64,000 nucleotides of DNA from an uncultured Eubacteriales bacterium (GTDB lineage Bacteria > Bacillota > Sulfobacillia > Fermentithermobacillales > Fermentithermobacillaceae): contig CAZXLH010000003.1 of the NCBI GenBank assembly GCA_964641455.1, forward strand, positions 8,592-72,591. Direction: 5' to 3'. The notes below the pieces were generated by a model that ran no database searches, was not told where the DNA came from, and saw only the letters and a list, made by a program, of their open reading frames with translations. The position numbers were made by a program, and so were the translations under genes. This document shows positions 32,988-42,264 of this stretch, piece by piece (position 1 is the stretch's first letter; each line of letters opens with the position of its first letter).

Positions 32988-33605
32988 CTACTTCACTATT
33001 TCTAACCAGTCAACGATAAGGAATTGCATCCTTGCAAGAAACAAAGATACACGGGCCATAACAGTTGTTCCAAACGCAGCGCCAAAAGCTATCATCATAG
33101 TGTACCTGCCTATCCAGGAACCATATTTAAGCGGGCCTTTTGGTTCGATCGTAAACAAAAAGAACGATAACGTACATATCACGCCTACCAGAAGAAGCGA
33201 AGCATTTATGGCCTCGGCACCGGTTGGGTTTGAAAGAGGCTTTATGGTAGCAATTACCTGGTCGATCAGCATGGGCTTCCACGTCTTGGTCAATACAACC
33301 CCTGCGCCTACACCGACAGTAAACGATATAGGGTATCTTGATAACCACTGAAGGCGCTTGCTAAACCTTGTATACATCAAAAGCCCCAAAATAATCGGAA
33401 CTATATAGTTCCACTTGCCCTTTTCAAGAATGTCTATCATTACCGCAGGCTTTATTCTGTTGCCGAACGTCATTGCAACAGCATACCCGGCTGTGGTACC
33501 CACAAAGATAGTTTCGGCAAAATAGTAAACTTCGCTCTCTTTGAAGATAATGCTGTAAAGAGCAAGGGTTAAAAACGCAGCAATCCAGTTTCCGATGTTA
33601 GCCAT
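32988..33605 (-). CDS. Uncharacterised polytopic membrane protein (DUF6754 cassette gene 4)
   Basis: About 6 hydrophobic segments, a G...GY motif and a C-terminal FGAAFG..VMAR motif; overlaps gene 3. Confidence 0.8.
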   Translation of the reverse strand: MANIGNWIAAFLTLALYSIIFKESEVYYFAETIFVGTTAGYAVAMTFGNRIKPAVMIDILEKGKWNYIVPIILGLLMYTRFSKRLQWLSRYPISFTVGVGAGVVLTKTWKPMLIDQVIATIKPLSNPTGAEAINASLLLVGVICTLSFFLFTIEPKGPLKYGSWIGRYTMMIAFGAAFGTTVMARVSLFLARMQFLIVDWLEIVK

Positions 33606-34440
33606 TACCTCTTGCCTCCTTTCTTTTGGAGAGGAAGTACTGAACGTTGCCGACTATCACAAAAAGTACAATTAGCAAGTGAGTTAGGCTCTGAGCATCC
33701 ATACCTACAGTGGCAGTACCGGGTGTATTGATCAATTGTTCATATTCGGCGGCCCCTTTCATGCCTGCGAGCATGCCGGTAAGCTGGCCTGATTGAAACA
33801 AAGGCATGCTTTCAGGGATACTCACAGCAAAACACGCCCCGGTAACCGGAACTCCCAATGGAACCCCAATCATCTTTACGTAAACTGAAAGCCCCTCGCC
33901 GAGTGACCCAATTGAGGCAGCCAAAGCTACATCCTTCAGAGATTTCACTTCTTGCATAAGCGGCATGGCTTCTAGCCGTTTTCCATAAAAGTCAACTCCG
34001 TTTGCCGCATTGATGATATCAACACCCATGGCTTCAAAAAACACGTTGCCCGAACCCTTGTAACCCAAATTAACCCAATCTTCACCGTATTTCTTATCAG
34101 GGAAGTCAGGCAATACAACATCCATAGCCCTTTCAAGCAAACTCCCTGACTCTGCTGTAATCCCTGCAGAAAGCACCTTGATATCCCTGGAAAAACAATG
34201 TCTGATTAAGGCAATCGCTGCAGGTTCCATTTCAGCCAAGGAAGATGCATAATAGTCAAAACCGATATAGACCGTTTTTCCGGATGGAATTGTATCGACG
34301 AAATCATATAGCACTTGGGTTTCCTTGCTAATTGGAATGGGCAGCCCGATAGGAGAAATAATGGCATATGCTACACACATAATAATCAAAATATATAGAA
34401 CATAATCCATCCGCCTGTCATTGGTTCCAGCCGTGTTCAT
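33598..34440 (-). CDS. Uncharacterised membrane protein with a soluble alpha/beta domain (cassette gene 3)
   Basis: N-terminal TM helix, soluble domain (DWVNLGY), LAGMKGAAEYE, and a C-terminal MDAQS..HL TM helix. Confidence 0.8.
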   Translation of the reverse strand: MNTAGTNDRRMDYVLYILIIMCVAYAIISPIGLPIPISKETQVLYDFVDTIPSGKTVYIGFDYYASSLAEMEPAAIALIRHCFSRDIKVLSAGITAESGSLLERAMDVVLPDFPDKKYGEDWVNLGYKGSGNVFFEAMGVDIINAANGVDFYGKRLEAMPLMQEVKSLKDVALAASIGSLGEGLSVYVKMIGVPLGVPVTGACFAVSIPESMPLFQSGQLTGMLAGMKGAAEYEQLINTPGTATVGMDAQSLTHLLIVLFVIVGNVQYFLSKRKEARGNG

Positions 34441-34459
34441 AACCTTTACCTCCCTTTGC

Positions 34460-35072
34460 TTAATCGGCGCCCAAATGCCTGCGCTCTATCCCTAGCATGA
34501 TTCTAAAAGCCTGGGATACAGCACCTATGGAAGCACCCAAAATTATGCCCCTCATGCCTGCGGTATTGGGAACATCCAAGATCCATCCGGAAATCTTGGG
34601 AATGGTTTTTGATATGGTTGCACCTATCGGCGCTTGCCCTAACATGACTATGACACCTGCAACAAGCAGCAAAGTAGCTTCGAAGTTTTTTGCACGGAAC
34701 GCTCTGTAAGAAGCGGAACCAATGTAAAACACCAATATCGAATACATTGTTCCATCCAACGGCACAATTACATTATTATAGATATAGCCAAGCCCCGGCC
34801 CTTGATGGCCTCCGAAAAGCCCTACACCTAAGGTTACATAGACGGAAAAGAAGGATACTCCTCCAATACCGGCCGCGTTTCAAGGAAATATTTTTGGTAT
34901 GGATACGCGTGAGGTTAATTACACCTAACATACATCCGACTGCACTTACTATAAGGAACCAATTATCCAAAGTAGACTTGACGGTAACGGCTACGGGAAT
35001 TGTAAAGTAATATGCCATGGCATAAATTATGCCGGCACAAAAGGTTATGGCTAACGGTAATTCACGTCTCAA
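34460..35072 (-). pseudogene. Membrane protein split by a frameshift near 34841-34852 (cassette gene 2)
   Basis: ORFs 34776..35072 and 34460..34765 join into one coherent membrane protein if the frame shifts at CTTTTCCGTC: ...WRSILLF / VYVTLGVGLFGGHQGPGLGYIYNNVIVPLDGTMYSIL... Confidence 0.75.
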
Positions 35073-35089
35073 GAGTACTCCTCCTTTCG

Positions 35090-35866
35090 TCAGATTTTAA
35101 GCACATTGACCAAAGTTTCGCTTCCGGTAAACATAAATATCGCACCTATAGCCGTTATCACAATCATTGCCACTTTCACAAAATCAGCCACAATCAAGCT
35201 TCCTATCAGTACAGGCTCCTCTGAGATATAAGCCGAAGCAGCATAAATTTCTTCGCCAATAAGACAATAGTCACACGCCGCCACGAAAAACGGGATTTGA
35301 TGCGTGTTCGCCGTACCGGCGATTTGTATTGCTCCAATCTCATAGCCTGTTTGAGCAAAAATGAGAGATTCTGCCCAAAAAGCACCTATGGCAATATTGG
35401 TGGCCACTCTTTCCCTGCGCATGATCCCTGTTACGCCTGTCGCATAACCGAACTGGTTATCGGTAAGAAATCGTACATCATCAGGATTAAAAGCATCCGG
35501 TTTGTTCTCAGTAAGATAAGCGTTCTTGATTATTTCCTCAGATAAGGTATGCACCAAAACCTTGTTGTTGCTCATGATAAGCGGAACATCATTTCTGGCA
35601 CATTTCCTGGCGACATAGTCCAAAATAGCCATTGAGGCCATAGTCTGAGCCTCATTAACATCGCTGATTCCCGGGGAAAAGTGCACAGGCCTACCCATCT
35701 CCGTTGCCCGGCCAATGGCCTCATCCAGGGCATCCAAACCACTCACTCGCCTGATAGACGGCAGTTTCCGGCCCTTTCTGGCACGGCCGATATAAAATAC
35801 GAGGGATATACAGAAAATCAACTGAGTCACAAAAGCCATGGTTTGTCCCTTAGCAATCAACGCCAC
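35090..35866 (-). CDS. DUF6754-domain membrane protein (cassette gene 1)
   Basis: IRRVSGLDALDEAIGRATEMGRPVHF, QIPFFVAACDYCLIGEEIYAASAY; strong GGAGG RBS. Confidence 0.75.
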   Translation of the reverse strand: MALIAKGQTMAFVTQLIFCISLVFYIGRARKGRKLPSIRRVSGLDALDEAIGRATEMGRPVHFSPGISDVNEAQTMASMAILDYVARKCARNDVPLIMSNNKVLVHTLSEEIIKNAYLTENKPDAFNPDDVRFLTDNQFGYATGVTGIMRRERVATNIAIGAFWAESLIFAQTGYEIGAIQIAGTANTHQIPFFVAACDYCLIGEEIYAASAYISEEPVLIGSLIVADFVKVAMIVITAIGAIFMFTGSETLVNVLKI

Positions 35867-36425
35867 TATAATCCTCCTCTCACATTAATTAACAAGGCAA
35901 CCGCTTGCTATCCACGACACTTCTCAGCACAATCTGTACACAGACAAGTCACGGAGATATATTTGAAACCAATAAGACTGCACGGTAAATAAAGCAAACA
36001 GAAACTTGTAAGCGATTCCCCCCTTTCGATTTGCTTAAGCGGATCACACCGACGCAAAACCAAGGGCCTGAGATTGTGGTATGTTTATCGCTGCAGGTGG
36101 TTGTAGCATAATAGGAATGACTGTTTTTACCATTCTGCGGAGCTATATAACATTCCTGCCAGGACTTAATAAATATTCAGCTTAGTTTGAAGATATTTGC
36201 CTGATCAGAAAATGTTACAATATGGTTGGCCTGACGTATCATATATAGGCCTGCTCTGTGCATCAACATGTTGCAACCAGGTTCACCATGTTTGCAGAAG
36301 CAGCCACTAAGCCCGAACCTGAAACGCAACAAGGTTCAAGGGGAGGAATCACCGTGAAATTAAGATACATGTCTCTACAGCAAGAAGGGGTAAATCCCAT
36401 AACGGATTTTGGCCGGAAAAGGATA

Positions 36426-38066
36426 GTGTCAAAACGCCCCTTGCAAATTGCTGTAGTTTCTTTTCTGTTTGTTTTGTGCTTTTTCTTATTCCCCCGTGTC
36501 GCCTTTGGAGCCTTTAGATACTATATTCCAAAGCAGCAAGATCAACTTACCGTTAATGAAGACAGTTCTGTTGGATTAATACGGTATTTTGAGTTTGCAG
36601 TAGACCAAAGTTCTACTGATTCAGGCACCGAGATTTGGATAGGGCTTCCCACTTCAAGAACTCAGGTATCGTCGGTAACTGATGATAAGGGGAATAACGT
36701 TACTTTTAAAACCCAAATATCAGGCGGTGATTACACCCTGATTTTGACCGGGTTTGACGCCATAGAACCGGGAAAGGCTAAAGGGTTTACAGTTGAAGCG
36801 GTTATCCCAGAGTTCTTGTTTCCGGATTCTGAAAATGAAGGGTACGCCACAATGAAGTATATACCCGGGTGGTGGTCATCTCAAGTTAAAGTGCAAGATA
36901 TTGCAGTAATCTTACCGGGTGGCGTGGAAAAAGACGAGATAAAAACGGGAACCGGCGAATGGGACGGAATCGCCCAAACCGAGTCAGGGGCTTATGTGGT
37001 TACATGGCGCTTTGAAAACCTGGGAGCAGGCGAAAAAGTATCCGTCAACATTGGGATTCCCGATACGTACGTGACACTGCCGGTGAAGGAAGAACCTGTA
37101 CCGGTAATTCCTCCCGAGCCACTTCCTTCTCACCGGGTACCCGGCATTGGGCATTCAGGTAATTTTGGCGCCATCTTTGGCTTATTTGCAGTAGCTGTCA
37201 TTGTGATTGTGGCAATAGGCATAGCCACCGGAATGAAAGAAGATTACTCACCGCCCCGGGTAAGCATGGAAGGGATAGGCGTCAACGAAACCCTGTCTCC
37301 TGTTGAAGTTTCCATACTTTTGAGGCAACCGCCTGAGAAAACCATGACACTGCTTTTGTTCTCACTTATTAAGAAAGGAATAGTAAGAGCATATTCAACT
37401 GAACCCTTAAGACTGTCTGTTCATTACGAAAGGGACTTATCAGAAGTTGAAGAACTCTTCTTGAAAGCCATTGACAGAAATACAGGAGAACTTGATCAAA
37501 CAAAACTCACTTACGTTTTCAGATTCATGGCTGCTTCTGTAAATGAGAAAATGAAGCCTTACTGCCGAAAAGACACAGAAGCTTTCTACCGCGGGCACAT
37601 AGCGAATCTTTGGGCTGAGGTTAGGGCGGCAAACACACCCGAGTTGAAACTTGAGTCTTTTGACAAGAATCTTCTGTGGCTCATTCAAGACGAAATTAAA
37701 CTTAAGGAATCTGAAAGCATTTTTGATTCCGAACAGAAAAAAGCAGCCTGGTGGCCCAATTGGTGGCTCATGGGCTTTCCTTACGGAAGAGGATATTTCG
37801 GCATTCACTGGTGGCCTATGGCAATGTATCACTCGTTTACAGGCATCTCAAGCGGCATAATACATGGCAACGAAGAAAAGTACAGGAAAATTACTGAGTC
37901 AGTGTTTACCCCGGCCAGGCCTGTGCCTGCCAGGAGCATTTTCGGCGGCAAAAGCGGCGGAACAAGCCATCACGGAGGATTTACCCCTCCCAGTTGTGCA
38001 TGTGCTTGCGCCTGTGTTTCCTGTGCCTGTGCATGTGCTTGTGCAGGCGGTGGGGGATGCACTTAG
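36426..38066 (+). CDS. Signal-peptide, single-pass membrane protein (DUF2207-like) with a C-terminal Cys-Ala repeat tail
   Basis: Start taken at the GTG at 36426 after GGAAAAGG. Order of regions: hydrophobic signal ending VAFG-A, beta-rich ectodomain, Pro-rich linker, TM helix FGAIFGLFAVAVIVIVAIGI, cytoplasmic domain, and tail SCACACACVSCACACACAGGGGCT. Confidence 0.85.
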   Translation: MSKRPLQIAVVSFLFVLCFFLFPRVAFGAFRYYIPKQQDQLTVNEDSSVGLIRYFEFAVDQSSTDSGTEIWIGLPTSRTQVSSVTDDKGNNVTFKTQISGGDYTLILTGFDAIEPGKAKGFTVEAVIPEFLFPDSENEGYATMKYIPGWWSSQVKVQDIAVILPGGVEKDEIKTGTGEWDGIAQTESGAYVVTWRFENLGAGEKVSVNIGIPDTYVTLPVKEEPVPVIPPEPLPSHRVPGIGHSGNFGAIFGLFAVAVIVIVAIGIATGMKEDYSPPRVSMEGIGVNETLSPVEVSILLRQPPEKTMTLLLFSLIKKGIVRAYSTEPLRLSVHYERDLSEVEELFLKAIDRNTGELDQTKLTYVFRFMAASVNEKMKPYCRKDTEAFYRGHIANLWAEVRAANTPELKLESFDKNLLWLIQDEIKLKESESIFDSEQKKAAWWPNWWLMGFPYGRGYFGIHWWPMAMYHSFTGISSGIIHGNEEKYRKITESVFTPARPVPARSIFGGKSGGTSHHGGFTPPSCACACACVSCACACACAGGGGCT

Positions 38067-38082
38067 TTATAGTTATCAGGTC

Positions 38083-38397
38083 ATGCCCATAGATACGAAA
38101 CTACTGGATGGGGGAATTATCATTACCGACCAACTTAATTCAATGTGGCTGCTCATAACATATAATATCTTTGCCTGTGCATTGATGGGCTATGATAAGT
38201 ACCAAGCCTTCCGCCGGCGGCGGCGAATACCGGAAAAGACGCTCTTTGCTGTAGCCCTTACCGGCGGCAGCTTGGGGATCTTAGCCGGCATGTTTTTCTT
38301 CCGCCACAAAACCAGACACTTGAGTTTTAAGTTGGGAATACCGGCAATTCTGGTGCTACAAGTATGGTTACTGTGGTATTGCCGGACCGGACACTAA
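38083..38397 (+). CDS. DUF1294-family small membrane protein
   Basis: MGYDKYQA....RIPEKTL......GGSLG....FRHKTRH..F motif; ATG 17 bp after the previous stop. Confidence 0.85.
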   Translation: MPIDTKLLDGGIIITDQLNSMWLLITYNIFACALMGYDKYQAFRRRRRIPEKTLFAVALTGGSLGILAGMFFFRHKTRHLSFKLGIPAILVLQVWLLWYCRTGH

Positions 38398-38520
38398 GGA
38401 TGGGCCTGGTTTTCCGTTTGCCAACCGCGTACCAGGTCCAAAAGTCGAGATATGAAAGCAATGGTAATGATCCAATTCAACCTTTTACCCCATACCGCAT
38501 TTCGCCGGTTACCTGCAGAC

Positions 38521-39987
38521 TTACCTGTAGATGCTGGCTCCGGGCCTGCGTTCCAGGGGACAACCTCCGCCACATAGGTCGAGTTCCTCGCATGAGATAC
38601 ATTCCTCAGGAAGCACAGGGAAATCAGGGTGTGTGACAACCCCCGGAATTCTCCGTTTTCTCAACGCCTGAGCCAATCGATGATTCCAAATATCCGGAAA
38701 CTGATCTGTAAGCGCATTGCCTATAGATTTGTAATATGACTGGCACGGCATCACGTTGGCGTCAGGTTCAATGGCCATAACAGTGCTTGCGGCCGAACAC
38801 GTCTTAACACCCAGGGCAAGATCCACCGGGTTCAATTCCTTGTAACAAGTCGGCGTATACCATATAAACGGGAAATCTTCATCTGCCGATACCTTAATCA
38901 CTTCGTCTAAAAGATCCTTTAGCTCCTCAGGTTCAAGCCCTTCATGTGACACTCCGCGGCCTGAACGTATCAAAGCATTGAGGCCGAATTTTTTCACGCC
39001 AAGGGTTTTTATGAATCTTATTGTCTCAATAACCGAATCTTTATTATCCCTGGTTATGGTGGTATTAGTGGTTGTGTATATCCTTGACGCTGCATTCCTT
39101 ATGCCGTCTACCGTTTCAGCCCATGCACCCTCCACCCCTACCATCTTGTCGTGAACCTCAGGGCTGAGTGATTCAAGTGTGACCTGGGCAAAATCCAACC
39201 CGGCTTCGGCCAATTCCGCAACTCTTGGCCCGGTAAGAAGCCTGCCATTGGTGATAAGGCCGGTAATAAGGCCGCTGTCTTCAGCATGTTGCACCAAAAC
39301 ATCAATACCATCTCTTAACAGCGGTTCCCCGCCTGTAAATACTACTGTAGGAACTCCCCAATCAGATAACCTGTCGATAATTTGCTTCCACGAGTTTATG
39401 GAAATCTCCCGTGTACTGTGAGGCCCGCCTGCATAGCAATGGCTGCAATTGTTCTGGCACCTATAGGTGAGAATCAGATCGCATCTGTATGGAGCGGAAA
39501 GTTCAACTGACAACGGATCTATGCGCCTTACTTCGAATTCCGAAAACGGGCACATGCCTCCTTCAGCAACAGCAATCACCGAACCCCAGAGCCTTTCCCA
39601 ATCAGGTGCAGCCCGGCTCTCTTCCACCTTAAACTTGCGCCTTATTCTCCTTATCACCCTGGGAGCGAGCGCCGTGCCAACCTCCCGCGGATTGGAAATA
39701 TCAATTGAGTTCAAACTTACATCAGGGGTTTTACCCAAGATTCTGGCTAGCAGGCCCGGGGAAGCCGCTGCGCCTGTGCCTACTCCAAATCCTTCTCCGG
39801 ATTCTTCCCGCCCGCTCCCGGCAATGGCCAGCCTTTCGTATTCATCAAAGAAAGCCTCAAAATAAGCCCTGGCTATATTATCAAGAAACAAAGCAGCCTG
39901 AGCATTAATTATCAGAACTCCGGTTTTGTCAGCCTCTCTTCGCAAGTGGAGTTTCAAATCACCTATCCGGATCTTTAGCATAAACAC
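38521..39987 (-). CDS. Radical SAM/SPASM-domain protein with a PqqD/RRE-like N-terminal domain
   Basis: CQNNCSHC, FTGGEPLLR, ITNG, and SPASM Cys motifs CSAA...IEPDANVMPC and CISCEELDLCGGGCP; about 150-aa N-terminal extension with three beta strands then helices. Confidence 0.9.
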   Translation of the reverse strand: MFMLKIRIGDLKLHLRREADKTGVLIINAQAALFLDNIARAYFEAFFDEYERLAIAGSGREESGEGFGVGTGAAASPGLLARILGKTPDVSLNSIDISNPREVGTALAPRVIRRIRRKFKVEESRAAPDWERLWGSVIAVAEGGMCPFSEFEVRRIDPLSVELSAPYRCDLILTYRCQNNCSHCYAGGPHSTREISINSWKQIIDRLSDWGVPTVVFTGGEPLLRDGIDVLVQHAEDSGLITGLITNGRLLTGPRVAELAEAGLDFAQVTLESLSPEVHDKMVGVEGAWAETVDGIRNAASRIYTTTNTTITRDNKDSVIETIRFIKTLGVKKFGLNALIRSGRGVSHEGLEPEELKDLLDEVIKVSADEDFPFIWYTPTCYKELNPVDLALGVKTCSAASTVMAIEPDANVMPCQSYYKSIGNALTDQFPDIWNHRLAQALRKRRIPGVVTHPDFPVLPEECISCEELDLCGGGCPLERRPGASIYR

Positions 39988-40023
39988 CGCACCCTTTCTT
40001 TATGGCAATGCGCCCGGGCTCGC

Positions 40024-40102
40024 TGAAACACCGGGGACGGTCCTAAATGTTTCATCCTAAAACATCAGGGACGAAACATCAGGGACGGTCCTAAACGTTT
40101 CA
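40024..40102. repeat. Two (plus a partial) 31-bp elements with terminal inverted repeats, REP-like
   Basis: TGAAACA-CCGGGGACGGTCCTAAA-TGTTTCA at 40024-40054, a partial AAACATCAGGGAC, then GAAACAT-CAGGGACGGTCCTAA-ACGTTTCA. Confidence 0.7.
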
Positions 40103-40293
40103 ATCTCATTCCGCGTCTTTACCTGTGCAATTCATTCCAACGTCCGACTACTATTCTACTATGAAACATTAGACATTGGGGAAGGTCGATGGACAATGAT
40201 TTCGTTACCTTATACTCTTAATAGCCCCCTAATATGCCAACGCCAGGCTTGCCTGAGAGCCAGCCTGCAAAACGAGGCTCAACCAGGGCTCCT

Positions 40294-40688
40294 TGGTACA
40301 GGTGGCGTACCACCCACCAGTGATTGTGCCTCGGACGGTGCTGAATGGTACACGTGATGTACCACTCACCAGGTGATTGTGCCTCGGACGGTGCTGAATG
40401 GTACACATGGCGTACCACTCGGCAGGTGATTGTGCCTCGGACAGTGCTGAATGGTACACGTGGCGTACCACTCACCAGGTGATTGTGCCTCGGACGGTGC
40501 TGAATGGTACACGTGATGTACCACTCACCAGGTGATTGTGCCTCGGACGGTGCTGAATGGTACACGTAGCGTACCACTCGGCAGGTGATTGTGCCTCGAA
40601 CAGTGCTGAATGGTACACGTGGCGTACCACTCGGCAGGTGATTGTGCCTCGAACAGTGCTGAATGGTACACATGGCGTACCACTCGGC
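40294..40688. repeat. 53-bp tandem repeat array, 7 full units plus a partial unit, each with a palindrome
   Basis: Units start at 40294 (52 bp), 40346, 40399, 40452, 40505, 40558, 40611 and 40664 (partial). Consensus TGGTACACGTGGCGTACCACTC(ACC/GGC)AGGTGATTGTGCCTCGGAC(G/A)GTGCTGAA. Confidence 0.97.
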
Positions 40689-40729
40689 CTATGATTTTGC
40701 AGTTAACTAAGCCTAGTCAGGCGGGAACA

Positions 40730-41003
40730 ACATAGGCCGTAAGGGCATGAGCCAGAGTGGCACAAAGAACACGAGGCGGCATTTGAGCTAGCTCAAAACG
40801 AAGCAAAGCGGCGCTTCCATCGTTGCCCTAAATGCACCAGATGGGTGTGCGAAAACGACTGGAACGAACAGACAGCCCTTTGCACTGAGTCCGCTCCCAG
40901 GGAGGCCGTAGAAGTTGCCGCTGCCAGGGCTCCAAAAATGGTCGACGACATACAAGACAAACCAGGGTTGACTCCTGATACCTCGAAAGCCTCATTTACC
41001 TGA
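40730..41003 (+). pseudogene. Remnant of a zinc-ribbon domain protein gene
   Basis: The frame from 40755 reads EWHKEHEAAFELAQNEAKRRFHRCPKCTRWVCENDWNEQTALCTESAP...*, with no in-frame start. The upstream GMS codons are one base out of frame. Confidence 0.6.
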
Positions 41004-41178
41004 CGGCAGCAAACGATAAAACCCAAGAAATAATTTTACTTTAGCACCAAAAACATTATAATTAATTGCAGTTGATTCAGATAAGGCTTTGTGGCCCACT
41101 GCATCATTGATGACCAAAGTGCCGGTAAAGCCAGGAATGGCCTTTTAGCCATAGTTGGCACTGAAAGCGGGGCTCGGC

Positions 41179-42264
41179 ATGGCTGATACCATCCTACAGC
41201 TAATTCATATTGAAAAGAGTTTTGCCAATTCAAAGGTTCTTAACGGCATTGACCTTAGGGTCCGCAAAGGCGAGTTCCTTACCCTATTGGGCCCTTCAGG
41301 TTGCGGCAAAACAACCACGCTGCGCATAATTGCAGGCCTGGAGACACCTGACAGAGGACGCGTCCTAATTGAAGGCAAAGATGTAACCTACGAAGAACCG
41401 AACAAACGAAATGTTAACATGGTATTCCAGAATTACGCCCTGTTTCCGCACATGAATGTAGAACAAAACATCGGATACAGCCTACGGCTACGACGAGTTG
41501 ATAAGGCAAGCATCAGAAAAACCGTTCAAGATGCACTGGAACTTGTACAACTTGAGGACTTTGAAAAACGGATGCCAAATGAACTGTCAGGCGGCCAGCA
41601 ACAACGTGTAGCTATTGCAAGGGCAATCGTCAACCAGCCTGCGCTTTTGCTGTTAGACGAACCTCTTGGTGCTCTGGACCTTCAGTTACGGCGCCAAATG
41701 CAAACAGAACTCAAACGACTGCAAAAAAGATTAGGCGTTACCTTTGTATACATTACCCACGATCAAGAAGAAGCCTTGAACATGTCAGATCGCATTGCAG
41801 TCATGCGCAATGGCAAGTTTGAGCAAATCGATACACCGTCAGAAGTATATGATCGGCCCAAAACAAGTTATGTAGCCAGATTTGTCGGTTCTGCCAACAT
41901 CCTCAGAGGCAAAGCCTCCAACGTGAATAATCAACTGGTTGAGTTTCAGAATGAAAATGGAACCACGCTGGTCTCTACACAAGGGGCACACATTGCATCC
42001 GGGCAGACTGTTACCATTGCTGTACGCGGTGAAATAATAGAATTGGCTCCGGACGTTCCCATGCATTCTGCGGGCCTTCGGGCCATAGTAAAAGAAAAGC
42101 GCTTTGCAGGAGGGGTACTCCAGGTCATAGTAGCCCTGGCTGACGGCAGCGAACTGGTTTCCAAGTACCATGGTATCGATCTTCCCTTTGCTCCTGGCGA
42201 TCGGGTTATTGCAACCTGGCAACCGGACGATGCAGTTCTTGTTGATCTGGAGGATACAGCATGA
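41179..42264 (+). CDS. potA: Spermidine/putrescine ABC transporter ATPase
   Basis: GPSGCGKT, LSGGQQQRVA, LLLDEPLGALD motifs and a TOBE tail. Start taken at the ATG at 41179. Confidence 0.9.
   Translation: MADTILQLIHIEKSFANSKVLNGIDLRVRKGEFLTLLGPSGCGKTTTLRIIAGLETPDRGRVLIEGKDVTYEEPNKRNVNMVFQNYALFPHMNVEQNIGYSLRLRRVDKASIRKTVQDALELVQLEDFEKRMPNELSGGQQQRVAIARAIVNQPALLLLDEPLGALDLQLRRQMQTELKRLQKRLGVTFVYITHDQEEALNMSDRIAVMRNGKFEQIDTPSEVYDRPKTSYVARFVGSANILRGKASNVNNQLVEFQNENGTTLVSTQGAHIASGQTVTIAVRGEIIELAPDVPMHSAGLRAIVKEKRFAGGVLQVIVALADGSELVSKYHGIDLPFAPGDRVIATWQPDDAVLVDLEDTA

Follow-up and report, generated by a model that had tools for sequence, protein, structure and literature searches.

TIGR04222 membrane proteins, which come mostly from Actinomycetota, have Cys-, Gly- and Ser-rich tails that have been proposed as substrates of non-haem-iron oxidases of the MNIO family; these tails are variable and predicted to be periplasmic, and one-third of the genomes that encode TIGR04222 proteins have no MNIO (PMC12452194). 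The locus described here lies in a 64,000-nucleotide stretch from an uncultured Fermentithermobacillaceae bacterium (assembly GCA_964641455.1, contig CAZXLH010000003.1, positions 8,592 to 72,591; hereafter the window), in which the gene for a single-pass membrane protein (the carrier) that ends in a Gly/Ser linker and a Cys-Ala (CA) tail is followed by a DUF1294 gene and faces, convergently, the gene for a radical S-adenosylmethionine (SAM) enzyme with a SPASM domain, all as an initial annotation of the sequence had recorded. The pairing of carrier and enzyme points to an undescribed protein-tail modification system, for which the MNIO-TIGR04222 pairing, itself only a proposal, appears to be the closest published analogue. 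Radical SAM enzymes that mature small peptides with the help of a recognition domain for ribosomally synthesized peptides that undergo post-translational modification (RiPPs), the RiPP recognition element (RRE), include the sactipeptide and ranthipeptide synthases SkfB, AlbA and CteB and the streptide enzyme SuiB, while other SPASM enzymes act on proteins: anSME forms the formylglycine of sulfatases and QhpD installs thioether bridges in QhpC. The initial annotation, which suggested that the enzyme modifies the tail, knew of no characterised example; this holds for characterised systems, but the concept itself has already been put forward for MNIO and TIGR04222 proteins (PMC12452194).

The two genes are neighbours in both bacteria and archaea. 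A scan of one genome per species recovered relatives of the enzyme in 359 genomes, and adjacency was counted in the best 80 of these; a CA-tail open reading frame (ORF) adjoins the enzyme gene in 76 of the 80, the exceptions being three orphan loci in Bacillota and one contig too short to hold the CA-tail gene. These 80 genomes are mostly Bathyarchaeia, together with Methanocellaceae, several Bacillota lineages, one member of the Halanaerobiales and one metagenome-assembled genome (MAG) labelled Nitrososphaeria. Three enzyme homologues of 42 to 49% identity (from the Methanocella arvoryzae chromosome, a Bacillota MAG and a metagenome contig) were inspected individually, and all three have a CA-tail gene of 541 to 581 aa immediately upstream. 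Taking the tail as the starting point, 5 of 7 distinct contexts have the enzyme next to the tail gene, with unrelated flanks and both relative orientations; the two contexts without an adjacent enzyme are syntenic with each other, and for one of them (JAXGZG01; L006 and L021) the same assembly has the enzyme on a different contig. In metagenomes, of the 19 loci of a Chloroflexota-type clade, ending in GGGR, that have sufficient flank, 16 carry the enzyme, and in M. arvoryzae and at one further locus (L008) the start and stop codons of carrier and enzyme overlap by 4 nt. The initial annotation had named a conserved neighbourhood of CA-tail proteins and this radical SAM clade as a test of its proposal, and the counts from both directions bear it out. 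The conserved module consists of two genes, or of three in archaea and Chloroflexota. The genomes closest to the window are Candidatus Fermentithermobacillaceae MAGs (Bacillota) from anaerobic digesters, and the named host taxa (Bathyarchaeia, Methanocellaceae, Fermentithermobacillaceae, Anaerolineales and Halanaerobiales) are presumably anaerobic, with the exception of the one locus labelled Nitrososphaeria.

Conservation of the tail far outlasts that of the protein that bears it. Homologues of the carrier fell into 26 clusters, and all full-length Bacillota members, down to 41% overall identity, end exactly in PPSCACACACVSCACACACAGGGGCT; the tail is identical in homologues that share just 41 to 56% overall identity, close variants occur in members at 28 to 31%, and recognisable variants are found in Methanocella, Bathyarchaeia, Chloroflexota and Halanaerobiales. 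Repeating the search with archaeal members in the alignment returned the same 26 proteins, the word pre-filter probably having been swamped by the repeat, and an exhaustive profile search of 1.84 billion representatives was used in its place. This search gave 1006 clusters (50% identity) at an E value of 1e-3 or better, 272 of them at 1e-30 or better, and a CA tail ends 127 of the best 147 family representatives, the remainder being mostly evident fragments or frameshifted. Three main types of tail were seen: ...CACACACVSCACACACAGGGGCT in Bacillota, with close variants such as ...CACVSCACACVSCACACACAGGGGGCT in Methanocella; C[VA]CAC[AH][AS]CAC[AV]CACVSCACACA[GS]GG[VA]G in Bathyarchaeia; and the Chloroflexota-type CACACACAGCACACAGGGR. 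They share a plan of three to four Cys-x pairs per block, a two-residue spacer that moves the register by one position and a final CA-GGG, laid out as two (CA)3-4 blocks separated by VS, AG, HA or AS and closed by GGG.

The tail is also conserved in a manner that can be separated from the repetitive DNA that encodes it. A 13-aa core, CACAC[VA]SCACACA, is encoded at 75 loci by 69 distinct DNA sequences, and every position draws on the full set of synonymous codons, two for Cys and four for Ala. The synonymous codons are therefore scrambled, which indicates that selection acts on the tail peptide rather than on a repeat in the DNA. On these comparisons the tail, which is invariant or nearly so throughout the family, is not a product of chance; it is among the strictest-conserved short motifs findable across two domains of life, and conservation of this kind implies strong selection for a role. 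We also note that in two representatives (P0216 and P0236) the CA motif is internal and is followed by an extension of ~90 aa, and that one locus (L099, positions 1-2319) carries two CA-tail ORFs in tandem, with no enzyme gene in the 4.8 kb downstream.

The initial annotation had read the carrier as a protein of 546 aa that begins at GTG 36426. The ORF is as described and this start is possible, but a start at GTG 36354, which gives 570 aa, is more likely because it is preceded by a GGGGAGG ribosome-binding site and agrees with the N-termini of homologues (MKLR.../VKSRYMS...). Throughout the family the carrier is a single-pass protein of 540-600 aa with a Gly/Ser linker just before the CA tail, and its body of ~500 aa is conserved too, with many invariant residues. 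We combined hydropathy with an AlphaFold2 (AF2) model, whose predicted local distance difference test score (pLDDT) is 68 overall and 80-90 for the individual domains. Together they predict a signal-peptide-like helix, a β-sandwich ectodomain, a Pro-rich linker and one transmembrane (TM) helix, followed by a helical cytoplasmic domain with a winged-helix-like element, two amphipathic helices and a disordered tail. The best fold matches of the ectodomain are ribophorin I/Ost1 and the N-terminal domain of M1 aminopeptidases. Given this predicted topology, which agrees with the single TM helix and cytoplasmic tail of the initial annotation, the tail should lie in the cytoplasm and therefore within reach of the radical SAM enzyme. 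A motif ~35-45 residues upstream of the tail (pG.dFA.s.v...e..s..iVgn.e.Ft..vt..tnP) is conserved across clades, and we propose that it may be the site at which an RRE docks.

The carrier is a remote branch of the DUF2207/TIGR04222 superfamily. On the window carrier, TIGR04222 reaches 16.8 bits (cut-off, 43) and DUF2207_C reaches 19.1 (cut-off, 33), and such sub-threshold matches recur across the family (TIGR04222 in 16, DUF2207_C in 12 and the DUF2207 N-domain in 8 of 18 members); it is from this recurrence that the placement follows, and the relation is one of remote homology only. Neither the carrier nor the enzyme clade has a model in Pfam or NCBIfam. As in the DUF2207 family, exemplified by SMU.243 of S. 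mutans (PMC10457818), an ectodomain, a TM helix and a cytoplasmic domain precede a low-complexity C-terminus, whereas in contrast to canonical DUF2207 proteins the similarity stays below threshold and there is a (CA)n tail, which the canonical proteins lack. The combination of a Gly/Ser linker with a Cys-bearing tail is shared with TIGR04222/DUF2207 proteins, as a fixed motif here and as variable low-complexity sequence there.

The enzyme is a radical SAM and SPASM protein by its Pfam matches (PF04055, E 7e-27; PF13186, E 1.4e-7), while its first ~165 residues match no Pfam family. In 62 homologues the three Cys of the radical SAM core (C175, C179 and C182) are invariant, as are C395, C413, C461, C464, C470 and C474 and the linker pair C144-P145, the latter belonging to an invariant CP(F)S motif at residues 144-147 of the N-terminal domain. 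The SPASM region of the window enzyme holds seven Cys, at residues 379, 395, 413, 461, 464, 470 and 474, and follows the reference motif CX9-15GX4C ... CX2CX5CX3C ... C except for the final Cys. The window enzyme ends ASIYR where a database protein of 99.8% identity ends ASICR, and the Tyr allele might represent variation between strains, a hypomorph or an assembly artefact. At 38509-38535 (minus strand) the ASIYR-stop is followed by a near-duplicate 12-bp block with a Cys codon that reads V-C-R-stop.

An AF2 model of the enzyme (pLDDT 85; predicted template modelling score, 0.87) begins with four strands (residues 2-33) and then three helices (35-56, 98-117 and 121-140), the topology of an RRE/PqqD domain, with a disordered insert at residues 57-97 that is specific to the window lineage. 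In a full-length Foldseek search with this model the best match was SuiB (E 7e-18), then SkfB (2e-17), followed by anSME, BlsE and PqqE, with NifB among the distant fold matches; we take SuiB and SkfB to be maturases with an N-terminal RRE. The topology and the alignment to SuiB and SkfB thus agree, at the level of a predicted fold only, with the PqqD/RRE-like domain claimed in the initial annotation, which had counted the lack of an RRE fold as a refutation. The best NCBIfam score of the enzyme is 131 bits against a cut-off of 525, and the 25 models listed of the 63 that matched all stay below their cut-offs. The nearest of them by score are the cofactor enzymes NirJ, AhbD and PqqE, and among the matches listed the enzyme belongs to no curated maturase family (SCIFF, AlbA, SkfB, StsB, PqqE, MftC and others). 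Since all listed scores fall so far under the cut-offs, the enzyme represents a distinct family.

Table 1. Predicted features of the CA-tail locus (window coordinates)
Feature	Position	Strand	Basis or comment
CA-tail membrane protein gene (carrier)	36354..38066	+	likely GTG start 36354, start in initial annotation 36426; product ends ...GGFTPPSCACACACVSCACACACAGGGGCT*, also given as ...HHGGFTPPSCACACACVSCACACACAGGGGCT
Signal-peptide-like N-terminal hydrophobic segment, then AFG/AF	36447..36503	+	hydropathy; AF2 helix 5-20
Extracytoplasmic β-sandwich domain	36516..37061	+	AF2 model; weak DUF2207 N-domain matches
Single TM helix	37170..37226	+	hydropathy and AF2; residues 249-267 of the 546-aa form
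Cytoplasmic helical/winged-helix domain, DUF2207_C/TIGR04222-like	37293..37721	+	below curated thresholds
Amphipathic pre-tail helices, conserved	37812..37907	+	candidate docking element for the enzyme RRE
Invariant tail SCACACACVSCACACACAGGGGCT, proposed core substrate	37992..38063	+	
DUF1294 gene, 104 aa	38083..38397	+	Pfam E 1e-22; lineage-specific passenger
RRE-radical SAM-SPASM enzyme, proposed tail maturase, 486 aa	38521..39981	-	convergent to carrier
SPASM domain, seven Cys	38524..38868	-	terminal Cys of most homologues is Tyr here
Radical SAM core, CxxxCxxC (C175, C179, C182)	38962..39486	-	
N-terminal RRE/PqqD-like domain, residues 1-150	39532..39981	-	predicted fold

With its RRE-like domain, radical SAM core, SPASM domain and a Cys-rich candidate substrate next door, the enzyme resembles RRE-dependent maturases such as SkfB, AlbA, CteB and SuiB. 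It differs from them in that, instead of a short leader-core peptide, it would act on the C-terminal tail of a protein of 540-600 aa that is integral to the membrane, in that the module has no protease or exporter, and in scoring far below the listed curated NCBIfam cut-offs for maturases. Like anSME, which is also among its structural matches, and QhpD, it would be a SPASM enzyme that acts on Cys residues of a protein and not of a free peptide, yet the tail lacks the C/S-x-P/A-x-R motif of sulfatases, and the carrier is a membrane protein and not an enzyme subunit; to our knowledge, anSME has no RRE domain, whereas one is predicted here. The parallel with the MNIO-TIGR04222 pairing lies in the remotely homologous carrier and in a Cys-rich C-terminal tail suspected to be the substrate of a RiPP-type enzyme. 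The differences are that the enzyme here is a radical SAM protein in place of a non-haem-iron oxidase, that the tail is predicted to be cytoplasmic and not periplasmic, that the hosts are archaea, Bacillota and Chloroflexota and not mainly Actinomycetota, and that the linkage to the enzyme is far tighter. Radical SAM enzymes are oxygen-sensitive, and MNIO-type oxidases depend on oxygen. No MNIO (DUF692/MbnB_TglH_ChrH) was found among the neighbours in 12 annotated loci, where the radical SAM enzyme is present. We found no literature that links DUF2207 to radical SAM enzymes, our own locus searches having covered CA-tail family loci; among the matches listed, the tail as a peptide string returned just unrelated papers that matched it as DNA, and Bathyarchaeia with SPASM and RiPP returned nothing relevant.

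In our view the enzyme probably acts on the tail in situ, modifying it as part of the membrane-anchored protein, and comparative genomics strongly supports the initial proposal of a radical-SAM tail modification. The RRE would dock on the conserved pre-tail segment of the carrier, the tail would enter the active site with its Cys thiolates engaging an auxiliary Fe-S cluster, and 5'-deoxyadenosyl radical chemistry would turn the Cys-Ala array into a modified structure that stays attached to the carrier at the cytoplasmic face of the membrane. Our leading guess for the chemistry, to which we would give somewhat less than an even chance should the tail indeed be modified, is a set of intramolecular thioether bridges of the sactionine or ranthionine type, in which Cys sulfurs would be joined to neighbouring or cross-strand carbons to yield a rigid cross-linked hairpin. 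Our second choice is an oxidative conversion of Cys to a metal-binding group, which would be the anaerobic counterpart of MNIO action on bufferins and possibly on TIGR04222 tails. The broader proposition, a post-translational modification system shared by bacteria and archaea in which a dedicated RRE-radical SAM-SPASM enzyme performs new chemistry on a membrane-tethered cytoplasmic Cys-Ala array, strikes us as an evenly balanced prospect.

Several observations weigh against modification of the tail by this enzyme. The tail has a Kyte-Doolittle value of 1.85 over 19 residues, formally above the TM threshold, and it may be embedded in or associated with the membrane, which would complicate access of the enzyme. 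The RRE assignment rests on the predicted fold because sequence searches gave no match, neither for PqqD when four of the N-terminal domains were compared with Pfam at E values up to 10 nor for a profile of 17 such domains against PDB sequences. The window enzyme has a Tyr where 51 of 62 homologues keep a C-terminal Cys, which the M. arvoryzae and L002-type orthologues also retain, so that of the "full SPASM Cys set" in the initial annotation the seven Cys stand and this extra one does not. The genes are unlinked, or the partner lies outside the available flank, in three Bacillota genomes and three metagenome loci, and linkage where it exists shows a functional link and is not proof that the tail is the substrate. 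Finally, C-x-C repeats can bind metals without any modification, and the tail could accordingly be an unmodified metal- or Fe-S-binding element, metallothionein-like, with the enzyme linked to it for another reason. The enzyme might then build or insert a cluster or cofactor borne by the tail, or modify another residue, a lipid or a small molecule, with the membrane protein as scaffold or acceptor. With its alternating C-x-C and a CxxC junction, the tail has a form that thiolate-cluster binders typically show; that the nearest NCBIfam models are cofactor enzymes and not sactisynthases, and that NifB is among the distant fold matches, point the same way. We nonetheless regard an unmodified tail as unlikely: the RRE-type domain, together with peptide maturases as the best structural matches, speaks for a substrate that is a peptide, a generic metal-binding tail would require neither invariant Ala positions nor a conserved GGG, and the neighbourhoods compared contain no other conserved candidate substrate gene.

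The position of the core at the extreme C-terminus, as in RiPP precursors, and the existence of long-leader precursors such as those of the Nif11/NHLP type would suit a classical RiPP with a giant leader, in which the tail is modified, cleaved and released and the carrier serves as precursor or export platform. Against this stand the conservation of the 500-aa body itself, many of whose residues are invariant, the predicted cytoplasmic location of the tail and the lack of any protease or transporter gene conserved with the module in the neighbourhoods inspected, and we hold such a release to be distinctly improbable. Relatives in DUF2207/TIGR04222 often carry low-complexity tails of Gly, Ser and Cys (PMC12452194), and the two genes are convergent in the window, as might be expected if a tail of this style merely happened to lie beside an unrelated radical SAM gene. 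Coincidence is, however, effectively refuted by the adjacency counts across bacteria and archaea (76/80 and 16/19) and by a peptide that stays invariant despite scrambled codons, and the overlap of start and stop codons in archaea also speaks against it.

If the enzyme does modify the tail, the reach of RiPP-type radical SAM chemistry would grow beyond small secreted peptides to include the tail of an integral membrane protein that is conserved. This would be the first radical-SAM "RiPP-like" maturase with such a substrate, and it would offer a first functional way into the large DUF2207/TIGR04222 superfamily, which is uncharacterised. The system could be the anaerobic counterpart of the MNIO-TIGR04222 pairing, in that another enzyme class would mature the Cys-rich tail of the same carrier superfamily; should the parallel hold, it would add to the cases of equivalent substrates that have both an oxygen-dependent and an oxygen-independent maturation enzyme. 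The modified tail might act at the membrane as a poly-thiol device, cross-linked or heterocyclised, in metal or redox handling. The system is abundant in Bathyarchaeia, of which we know no pure culture, and it is tractable, given that substrate and enzyme are defined, the core spans ~25 residues and the module is present in Methanocella, species of which can be cultivated.

A third component is likely in archaea and Chloroflexota. At archaeal and Chloroflexota-type loci (L008-L010, L012, most of L025-L092 and a subset of L093-L112) the gene directly upstream of the CA-tail gene, which it frequently overlaps, encodes a small zinc-ribbon protein of 115-190 aa; its N-terminal part is hydrophobic and presumably spans the membrane, and the ribbon is a C-terminal CxxC...CxxC. 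These proteins make up a family that spans 43 loci and is absent in Bacillota, the window included. The enzyme gene is followed at 25 Bathyarchaeia loci by one for a SerB-like HAD phosphatase that is fused to a membrane domain, and in Methanocella a homologous 181-aa membrane protein is found upstream of the module (examples: L012 9355-10599, L088 7348-8469 and L010 5189-5740); this neighbour may reflect lineage synteny and not belong to the core. PurM beside the module in Methanocella was set aside as a housekeeping, lineage-specific neighbour, and GNAT acetyltransferases were noticed in a few loci without a systematic count. The co-occurrence of DUF1294 with the system, which the initial annotation had suggested testing, did not extend past the closest relatives of the window (L001 and L013-L016), and with no other locus carrying it we rejected DUF1294 as a component. 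A separate short Cys-rich precursor was likewise rejected, in keeping with the initial annotation: the sole candidate, a 51-aa ORF at 35908-36063 (minus strand), matches nothing in any related locus at E <1, and no further short Cys-rich ORF of the region 35800-41200 is conserved elsewhere.

Elsewhere in the window, five predicted membrane-protein genes at 32988-35866 (minus strand), one of them DUF6754 (E 2e-97), are divergent from the CA-tail gene, and none of their Pfam families was seen near homologues at the loci inspected from the tail side. A scan of 35700-40400 for promoters and terminators gave nothing above background. Just upstream of the enzyme start codon, at 40020-40100, there are two adjoining copies of AAACATCAGGGACG within two imperfect direct repeats of ~28 bp (TTTAGGACCGTCCCyGrTGTTT), which might serve a regulator as its operator. 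Between the radical SAM gene and a potA-like ATP-binding cassette (ABC) transporter operon that starts at 41155, positions 40294-40685 consist of a 53-bp tandem repeat (7.4 copies, 92% identity) that gives rise to spurious overlapping ORFs in all frames.

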